A DNA stretch of 64,000 bases from positions 4,256,001 to 4,320,000 of the forward strand of contig CM000154.2 of NCBI GenBank assembly GCA_000004695.1, given 5' to 3'. Made by a program: the position numbers and the translations under genes. The notes under the pieces are model-generated. The model had not been told where the DNA came from. It saw nothing but the letters and a program-made list of their open reading frames with translations, and did not search any database. Of the stretch, positions 16,924 to 19,001 are shown piece by piece (the stretch's first letter is position 1; each line of letters starts with the position of its first letter). This DNA is from Dictyostelium discoideum (Eukaryota).

Positions 16924-18935
16924 CTATATTTCTTTAATAATTTCTACAGATTCATCTAATTTACAAATATCTAATGATTGATTAAAATTATATTGTAAAA
17001 TAATTTTTGGTATATGTTTGGGTATTGATCCTTCAATTAGTGGTGTATTCATTTCTCCTAATGTTAATTGCTTTATTGAATTTGGAATGATTCCTGGTGT
17101 TAGTTGATGTTTGAATCCTCCATAAATACTGAGATATGTTACAGAATTTGGTATTGAATTTATTTCTAATGATTGTTTAGTACCATTTAAATATAAGAAT
17201 TTCGCTCCATCACTAATTATACCTGGTGTTATTAATTGATCGAAAACATCATTGAAATGTAAATTAGTGACTGATTTAGGAATTGATCCAACAACTAATG
17301 GTGATTTAATATTATAGAAGTATAAATATTTTACACTTTCTGGTATAATACCTGGTGAGAGTAATTGTTTAAAACCATCATTAAACGTAATTGATTCAAC
17401 TGAATTTGGAATTGAACCAATCTTTAATTCACTTTTAATATTATTTAAACTTAACTCTTGTATACCTTCAGGTATCAAAGAAATGGTACCGATTGATAAT
17501 GGTTGATTAAATCCATTTTGTAAACAAAGATAAGATACAGTTTTAGGAATTGATCCAATCTCTAATGAATGTTTGATATCTCTTAAATTCAAATATCTGA
17601 CGCTCGAGGGAATAATACCTGGTTCTAGTGATTGGGAAAATCCATCACAAACATGCAAATGATTTACAGAATTAGGAATTGAACCAATCTTTAATGGCTT
17701 TTTAATGTCGTGTAGATATAAATATTTAGCCCTCGAAGGAATAATACCAGCTTCAATTGATTGATTAAATCCATCATGAAATGATAACCACCCAACACGT
17801 GATGGTATTGATCCAATTACCAAGGGTGTTTTAATATCATATATATCTAAATATTCAATACCAAGTGGTAATACACCTGGTTCTAAACTTTCTTTAAATC
17901 CATCTAATAATATTACATGCCAAAAATTTTTATTTGATTTAAGTTTTAATAAACTACCGCACTCTTCTCCAAGTGCAATTTTAACATCATCTTTTGGTAA
18001 TTCACTGTTCTCTGAATATAAATAATACTTTTCACCACTACCAAATTCTATTTTTAAAATAAAATGTTAATATACTTTTATTATTTACATATATACTTGT
18101 AATTAAACATACTTTTTATAAATTTATAATTATTTTCATCAGTTTCAATCTTAAATTTTTCATTTAATTCATTATTATTTTTATTATAATTATTATTATA
18201 ATTATTATTATTATTATTATAATTATTATTAATAAGTTCATATATTGATTCTAAATTATTTTTAATTTCATCAATTATTTGATTATTGAATTTAATGATT
18301 TGATTATTATATTCTTTTAATTTATTTTGATTATTGATATTTATATTATTTTTTAATAACAATAATGATTGTTGATATTGTTTAATTAGTTCAATTGTAT
18401 CAGTACCTTTATGATAACCAATAATATCTTCATCACCATAATCATAATCATTATAATTTTGTTGAATATTTTTTATTGAATTGTTTAATTTATCAATCAT
18501 TGGGTTATTATTATATTTATTACTATTATTATCAATATTGATTGAGGAGGTAATAGTTGCATTTATTAATGTATTTTCTTGGAAAATTGTTTCTAATTGT
18601 TTTTCGATATCTAATTCAAGTATTGAGAGTATGTGATGAAGTTTTTTAAATTCATCTTTAAGTAATTTTTTATTTTCATCATTTTGTAATTGAATTTCAT
18701 TGAAAATTTCATTGGAATCTTTTAATGTTTGTTTATTATCTCCAATTCTTTCAAGTAATTTCGGGTAAACATCGTCTTTAAAATTATTCATCATTGAAAG
18801 AATGTTTGATATTGATATTGGTTCTAATCCATGACGATGATGAGAACCATTACTGGATGCACATAAAATACAACATGGTATTAATTTACAATCTAAACAT
18901 AAAAGTTCAACATTTTTACTTGGATGGATTGAACA

Positions 18936-18986
<51 letters not shown>

Positions 18987-19001
18987 TGTTAATGATATCA
19001 T
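16924..19001 (-). CDS. Copy A of the tandem family: B-box zinc finger / coiled-coil / poly-Asn / FNIP-repeat protein (about 670 aa), apparently intact.
   Basis: Exon 1 is 19001-18113: poly-N, Cys/His B-box-like finger [39 protein letters not shown], coiled-coil region. The minus-sense donor is GTATGT. A 65-nt intron spans 18112-18048. Exon 2 is 18047-16924 and encodes about 14 FNIP repeats (GSIPxSVxxLxFxxGFNQxLxPGIIPxSVKYL). The FNIP frame opens exactly at the acceptor, downstream of an in-frame TAA. Confidence 0.6.

Follow-up and report, generated by a model that had tools for sequence, protein, structure and literature searches.

Two open reading frames (ORFs) lie close together on the minus strand at positions 16924-19001 of a 64,000-nucleotide (nt) stretch of Dictyostelium discoideum DNA, hereafter the window, and they raise the question of whether this locus holds two genes or the two exons of one. 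The ORF track presents them as follows.

18081..19001, minus strand: ORF of 306 amino acids (aa) with an ATG start, which contains the B-box
16924..17823, minus strand: ORF of 299 aa with a TTG start, which contains FNIP repeats

An earlier note on this DNA had proposed that the B-box and FNIP ORFs are one spliced gene, and every sequence-level test that we ran favours this proposal, whether it concerned anatomy, reading frame, homologs or public gene boundaries. We consider it highly probable that the locus, which we call copy A because it is one of six tandem paralogs, is a single two-exon protein-coding gene, in which removal of a 65-nt intron at 18112-18048 would lead to one 670-aa protein. 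We give next to no credence to the opposing view, in which a 306-aa B-box/helical protein ends at 18081 and an independent gene encodes a separate FNIP-repeat protein.

Results

The locus lies in a eukaryotic genome

The two-gene view is how the ORF track itself reads the locus, and this track is a stop-to-stop list that permits bacterial start codons, here TTG. The window has a GC content of 22.1% and belongs to D. discoideum chromosome 5. Two of its ORFs agree in every residue with AX4 proteins: that of cupH (21976-24282) matches XP_635652, and that of a NOL1/NOP2/Sun methyltransferase (9295-10800) matches XP_635647. The window also matches a newer assembly of D. discoideum chromosome 5, GCA_054883475.1, over 22 kb at 99.7% identity with eight small gaps, and over 16924-19001 the DNA is identical (counterpart L001 4949-7026). 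Taken together, the base composition, the AX4-identical ORFs and the assembly match indicate a eukaryotic genome with short AT-rich introns. The division into 306 aa and 299 aa is an artefact of bacterial-style ORF listing on such a genome.

Copy A contains a predicted 65-nt phase-1 intron

The gene model for copy A has the following parts.

18113..19001, minus strand: exon 1, 889 nt, with the ATG at 19001, comprising 296 codons plus 1 nt and encoding a poly-Asn run, the B-box and a helical region
18048..18112, minus strand: predicted intron, 65 nt, GTATGT...AAATAG, phase 1, 87.7% AT, conserved in all six paralogs
18066..18070, minus strand: TTAAC branch-site-like motif, about 19 nt upstream of the acceptor, which contains the TAA that closes the FNIP frame
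16924..18047, minus strand: exon 2, 1124 nt, comprising 2 nt, 373 codons and the TAG stop at 16926-16924, and encoding a linker and the FNIP repeats

On the minus strand, exon 1 ends in ...TTTATAAAAA, the intron opens with GTATGTTTAATTAC and closes with TTTTAAAAATAG, and exon 2 begins with AATTTGGTAGTGG. The join of phase 1 to phase 1, as the earlier note had described it, yields a coding sequence of 2013 nt that translates into 670 aa, with ...NNYKFIKKFGSGE... as the peptide spanning the junction, which bears out the claim that the split ORFs understate a gene of about 670 aa. The note had also placed a TAA that closes the FNIP frame directly at the acceptor. The frame is indeed closed by a TAA, which lies at 18069-18067, seven codons upstream of the first full codon of exon 2.

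The proposed intron has the composition expected of its class. Its AT content of 87.7% exceeds that of exon 1 (82.5%) and exon 2 (72.2%), and D. discoideum introns are reported to be 89.1% AT with a median length of 103-104 nt (PMC4683709, PMC2483917). Across the six copies the corresponding segments span 64-67 nt at 87.7-90.6% AT, which is shorter than the species median and comparable to the 61-nt introns of annotated homologs. All six begin and end alike, with the GT...AG termini and extended donor of GTATGT...AAATAG, and the acceptor in copy A consists of an AT-rich tract followed by ATAG. The TTAAC motif stands at an equal distance from the acceptor in every copy, and the homolog introns also hold TTAAC or CTAAT-like motifs, which suggests that TTAAC may be the branch site; this candidate is no strict match to the wCTrAy consensus, which only ~33% of D. 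discoideum introns strictly match (PMC4683709, PMC2483917). These features support the assignment of 18112-18048 as a canonical spliceosomal U2-type GT-AG intron. In its GT-AG ends, AT content of ~88% and shortness it resembles ordinary introns of the species; it differs from them in falling below their median length and in the departure of TTAAC from wCTrAy.

An intron of this kind could also be kept. Regulated intron retention or intronic polyadenylation would lead to a short, 306-aa, B-box-only isoform beside the full-length product, which we regard as unlikely. If the intron were retained, exon 1 would be extended by 10 codons up to a stop in copies A, B, C and E, and the intron contains AATAAA. 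However, AATAAA is expected by chance in sequence that is 88% AT, the read-through tail differs in copy F (18 codons), and no test result points to such an isoform.

The junction recurs in six tandem copies and is constrained by frame

Copy A is the last member of a minus-strand cluster of six tandem copies that spans 16924-38253 and is interleaved with cupH and a short-chain dehydrogenase gene (30973-31845). Of its members, A and F are intact and the other four (B, C, D and E) are broken.

16924-19001, minus strand: copy A, intact, 670 aa; intron 18112-18048
19313-20976, minus strand: copy B, 5'-truncated, lacking the B-box, with a frameshifted FNIP region; intron 20549-20485 (65 nt)
26657-28239, minus strand: copy C, B-box and intron intact (27326-27263, 64 nt), FNIP region truncated and frameshifted
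28710-30155, minus strand: copy D, B-box and helical region deleted; intron 30013-29949 (65 nt); 4-nt deletion in exon 2
32392-34521, minus strand: copy E, full length, with a GAA>TAA nonsense codon at 34104-34102 in exon 1; intron 33581-33516 (66 nt)
36030-38253, minus strand: copy F, intact two-exon gene, 718 aa; intron 37220-37154 (67 nt)

The deletion in copy D fused the N-terminal poly-AAT (poly-Asn) tract to one near the end of exon 1, with the start codon kept. The earlier note had reported the same donor and acceptor in copies C, E and F, and this recurrence holds, as does its remark that the intron of F is 2 nt longer than that of A. Its coordinates are correct for F, and the donors of C and E need adjustment, from 27325 to 27326 and from 33591 to 33581 (off by 10). 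Its list was also incomplete, as the intron is present in B and D as well.

An in-frame join is by itself not special, because copy A allows 28 single-intron GT..AG joins that leave an open frame; such a join alone is not beyond chance. The acceptor common to all six copies, the ATAG at 18048, works with only one donor, 18112. An alternative AG at 18039-18038 occurs in copies A and D only, and we rejected the splice pairs 18108/18038 and 18096/18038 because four copies (B, C, E and F) lack the AG that both pairs use. In all five copies that were modelled (A, B, C, E and F), the phase-1 spliced join is in frame. The introns of A to F measure 65, 65, 64, 65, 66 and 67 nt, so that the relative frame of the two ORFs varies between copies (length modulo 3 of 2, 2, 1, 0 and 1 in A, B, C, E and F). 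Length changes in the intron are of 1-2 nt, whereas those in exon 2 are of 6, 3 and 3 nt among A, E and F, the copies in which exon 2 is intact. A programmed frameshift or read-through between the ORFs was rejected, since their relative frame varies by copy and the spacer has stops in the exon-1 frame.

The FNIP frame also offers little from which to start translation. Its first ATG is codon 338 of 380 in copy A, 339 of 380 in F and 308 of 384 in E, and a scan of the FNIP frame of copy C for an ATG found none; a start codon upstream of the first repeat, for which the earlier note had suggested looking, is thus missing from each of these frames. Lacking an ATG for ~338 codons, the FNIP frame of copy A cannot serve as an independently translated gene, and the 299-aa ORF depends on its bacterial TTG start. 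The spacing of the frames likewise argues against two independent genes, as only 65 nt separate them, compared with a gap of ~310 nt from copy B to the start of A. The spliced junction of copy A was also sought as an exact match in JGI metagenome contigs, with 0 hits, a result that is uninformative.

Diverged homologs carry an intron between the two domains

The nearest public proteins are from Dictyostelium, are 46-62% identical, and hold PF00643 (B-box) and PF05725 (FNIP) in one product. The introns of three homolog loci were mapped by exact reconstruction, with gene models that are themselves predicted, and in all three a single intron falls between the B-box and FNIP parts. DDB_G0289849 of AX4 has one 61-nt phase-1 intron after residue 273 (...NKFFK, followed by W...), the D. 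dimigraforme homolog has one of 61 nt and phase 1 after residue 264, and the D. purpureum homolog has one of 86 nt and phase 1 after residue 269. Their donors (GTAAGC, GTAAAT and GTATGC) differ, and their sequences are unrelated to the introns of copies A-F. In a protein alignment, the intron occupies the same column in A, F and DDB_G0289849 and lies three columns off in D. dimigraforme; that of D. purpureum shares the phase and the place between the domains, in an alignment too diverged for columns to be equated. An intron that is real and old would be expected to recur in this way, at a similar place and in the same phase, in sequences that have diverged.

The homologs bear directly on whether two genes are present. 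Some annotated Dictyostelium proteins have FNIP repeats without a B-box, which is what a separate FNIP gene at this locus would resemble; however, the homologs hold both domains in one product with the intron at the same place. The closest comparison is with DDB_G0289849 (annotated as 'B box-type domain-containing protein', 510 aa) and related annotated chromosome-5 paralogs, which share the B-box/helical/FNIP layout of copy A at 47-52% identity. Like copies A and F, DDB_G0289849 has a single phase-1 intron in the same alignment column; unlike copies A-F, it has fewer FNIP repeats and its unrelated 61-nt intron reads GTAAGC...ATATAG. It is also in the reference proteome, from which copies A-F appear to be absent.

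Another annotated paralog, DDB_G0290679 (P0001; AX4, 815 aa), does not end with its FNIP domain but goes on to another B-box and the beginning of another helical region (...NNNNKCSFHPNKNLELLCFNCKFIPCC...). It seems that either the gene model has been extended into the neighbouring tandem copy or the fusion is genuine.

The product would join a B-box to an FNIP repeat domain

Two domains are recognizable in the spliced protein of copy A.

18831..18935, minus strand: B-box zinc-ligand core, C23-x2-H26 ... C35-x2-C38 ... C44-x2-C47 ... H54-x2-H57
16975..17877, minus strand: FNIP/FGxxFN leucine-rich repeat (LRR) domain, residues ~354-654, 14 repeats of 21-24 aa

The eight Cys/His ligands of copy A fit a spacing that we take to be B-box2-like. 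Among 21 family members, C35, C38, C44, C47, H54 and H57 are invariant, and C23 and H26 are at least 90% conserved. Scores for the Pfam zf-B_box model (PF00643; cut-off 24.1 bits) are borderline: exon 1 alone exceeds the cut-off at 25.1 bits, whereas the 670-aa protein (23.6) and copy F (23.0) fall below it, and the paralog DDB_G0289849 reaches 33.7 bits. The FNIP assignment is strong in score, as copy A reaches 202.7 bits over nine stretches with Pfam FNIP (PF05725; cut-off 21), and its residues 380-654 match Crov588 (PDB 6nyr) by sequence with E=1.3e-63. FNIP repeats are a structurally characterised subclass of LRR (PMC9525666). Searches of copy A with Pfam found no RING domain, with the B-box starting at residue 18-23 after the poly-Asn run, and no DUF4559 match at E<=0.01.

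DDB_G0289849 was modelled by AlphaFold as a proxy for copy A, from a 21-sequence alignment and with a mean predicted local distance difference test score (pLDDT) of 79.7. The model shows a B-box at ~17-55, a single long helix at 59-164, further helices, and then a regular solenoid, and Foldseek matches it to 6nyr (E=6e-11) and 7zal (E=5e-6). Strands 270-274 and 277-282 of a predicted beta-hairpin flank the intron position after residue 273, in 10-residue blocks with mean pLDDT of 85-90. A predicted hairpin that straddles the junction in this paralog argues further against a division of the locus into two genes.

Exon 2 appears to be under protein-level selection

We examined the divergence of the copies for the imprint of translation. 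Exon 2 differs by 97-119 substitutions among copies A, E and F. When substitutions of the same number and spectrum were placed at random, ~0.1% of 5000 simulations kept the frame open and the average number of stops was 6.5-7, which indicates that the open frames have been kept far beyond neutral expectation. Between A and F, the ratio of nonsynonymous to synonymous divergence (dN/dS) by the method of Nei and Gojobori is 0.34 in exon 1, whereas exon 2 reaches 1.07.

The exon-2 ratio conceals a pattern within the repeats. At the surface x positions of V-x-x-L-x-L-x, taken as repeat positions 7, 8, 10 and 12 and with small synonymous counts (2.5-3.3) and gene conversion uncontrolled, dN/dS is 2.3-3.4, compared with 0.46-0.59 elsewhere at equal dS. 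Among the FNIP stretches of A (16975-17877), E (32440-33340) and F (36080-36980), residues vary at 50 of the 98 x positions of G-x-I-P-x-x-V-x-x-L-x-L-x and at 24 of 195 positions elsewhere. The divergence of the paralogs therefore looks like the outcome of diversifying selection on the LRR surface. Exon 2 is thus under selection as protein and has to be translated, and a frame that is so selected and has no start codon of its own has to be joined to an exon upstream.

Points that weigh against a single-intron gene

Several observations count against the single-intron gene or weaken the case for it. The paralogs are 87-92% identical, so the conservation of the intron among the copies carries little independent weight, and the splicing of copy A is predicted from sequence. 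Others concern the public gene call, the protein collections, and the state of the cluster, and each has to be set against the evidence above.

On the identical DNA of GCA_054883475.1, a public gene call places one minus-strand gene at exactly 16924-19001, and the gene-position index of that assembly lists the other copies as single genes too. However, the call for copy A has 624 residues, 46 fewer than the 670-aa single-intron model, and would therefore remove 203 nt in total, that is, 138 nt beyond the 65-nt intron. Enumeration of GT..AG introns that lead to 624 residues gave no single-intron solution and 44 two-intron solutions, of which four keep the 65-nt intron and take a further, in-frame 138 nt out of exon 2, equivalent in length to two FNIP repeats. 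If the 624-residue call is right, copy A would still be one gene, with two repeats (46 aa) lost to additional splicing. We regard this as highly improbable, because exon 2 is an uninterrupted open frame in which no further intron is needed, and because it can be aligned with E and F as coding sequence, gap-free at the segments in question. These candidate segments lie within an exon that is 72% AT overall, compared with 88% for the intron. Furthermore, the same annotation removes only the short intron in copy E, as its call (1602 nt, 511 aa) is exactly reproduced by removing the 66-nt intron alone.

In exact look-ups, none of the 670-, 718-, 511- and 306-aa products was on record, nor was any of eight guessed models of 624 aa. 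Word-index searches and an exhaustive search of representative proteins detected no protein more than 62% identical to either exon, though AX4 paralogs are present, which suggests that the AX4 reference proteome is without products for copies A-F; these protein searches matched the locus to no DDB_G identifier.

The missing products, together with the state of the cluster, could be taken to mean that copy A is a silent or decaying copy, either unexpressed or a young pseudogene, with splice signals inherited from a functional ancestor. Four of the six members carry truncations, frameshifts or a nonsense codon, and a recently dead gene would be compatible with an overall exon-2 dN/dS of ~1, taken as a statistic alone. 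We consider such decay very unlikely. Copies A and F retain open frames of 2.0-2.2 kb in DNA that is 78% AT, where the simulated random substitutions would have introduced several stops; the exon-1 ratio is low; and the substitutions in exon 2 are patterned by repeat position, with dN/dS >2 at the surface and ~0.5 elsewhere. A functional gene with a single 65-nt intron remains our preferred reading of copy A.

Other split reading frames in the window

Two further genes in the window appear as more than one ORF. The DNase II gene (45883-46722, minus strand) is divided by a short intron into ORFs of 279 aa and 101 aa, as read on an unspliced Logan contig (L005); this split is the same artefact of the ORF track as that of the B-box/FNIP gene. 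The talA gene, which encodes talin-A (about 1565-9238, plus strand), is represented by long ORFs at 2507-5596 and 5651-9238 that share one frame and are parted by a single in-frame TAA at 5594-5596 (AATTAC TAA GATCC). This break is not an intron. In GCA_054883475.1 the codon is AAA instead, and talA is called as one 2493-aa product, which indicates that the TAA in the window is a nonsense allele or a base-call error.

Discussion

The locus is to be read as one B-box/FNIP gene. The analysis establishes the sequence anatomy, the frame logic, the conservation among paralogs and homologs, and the domain identities, whereas the occurrence of splicing and the role of the protein are inferred. In the proposed sequence of events, the 65-nt GT-AG, phase-1 intron at 18112-18048 would be removed from the pre-mRNA, and translation from the ATG at 19001 would lead to a 670-aa protein that consists of a B-box zinc finger, a long helical region that is probably a coiled coil, and an FNIP/FGxxFN LRR solenoid. 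Such a protein would most likely act through a zinc-stabilised B-box, self-association of the helical region, and an LRR surface that binds a variable ligand.

Each part of this architecture has parallels in known systems. The CroV FGxxFN LRR proteins Crov588 and Crov539 (6nyr, 7zal) are like copy A in FNIP sequence and like the paralog model in fold, but they are without the B-box/helical N-terminus, and Crov588 forms a closed ring of 25 repeats, compared with ~14 repeats in copy A. Within D. discoideum, the experimentally studied AreA (DDB_G0279871) is an Atg101 interactor that restrains autophagy and that combines a B-box with FNIP, and its HHpred matches included TRIM B-boxes (PMC4554924). 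Copy A thus resembles AreA in carrying a B-box zinc finger and FNIP repeats in one protein, but AreA also carries DUF4559, which the Pfam search did not detect in copy A. Animal TRIM/RBCC proteins show a comparable order, in which a B-box is followed by a long helix or coiled coil and then by a variable C-terminal recognition domain. In contrast to them, copy A has no RING and its C-terminal domain is LRR rather than SPRY, NHL or similar. Having no RING, copy A has no E3 ligase module and is not a TRIM family member.

The significance of the gene structure itself is small. It shows that the window is eukaryotic DNA and that a track of bacterial-style ORFs breaks up ordinary two-exon genes; this one is an ordinary two-exon eukaryotic gene from a family that is already annotated, its locus had been called as a single gene before, and to that extent it was already known. 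For annotation, the existing 624-aa public call may over-splice copy A, and the reference proteome seems to be without the products of the cluster.

A broader reading concerns the cluster at 17-38 kb as a whole. Its mixture of intact and broken members and the pattern of divergence in its repeats might reflect a birth-and-death family of RING-less, TRIM-like B-box/coiled-coil/LRR proteins with a positively diversifying repeat surface, which would make these proteins candidate cytosolic recognition receptors of a social amoeba, whether immune or for self/non-self. We offer this as a tentative suggestion that is more probably wrong than right, and literature searches that touched on the topic turned up no account of it. 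The concentration of paralog divergence on the repeat surface, which resembles diversifying selection, is the only point of wider interest that we see in this locus.

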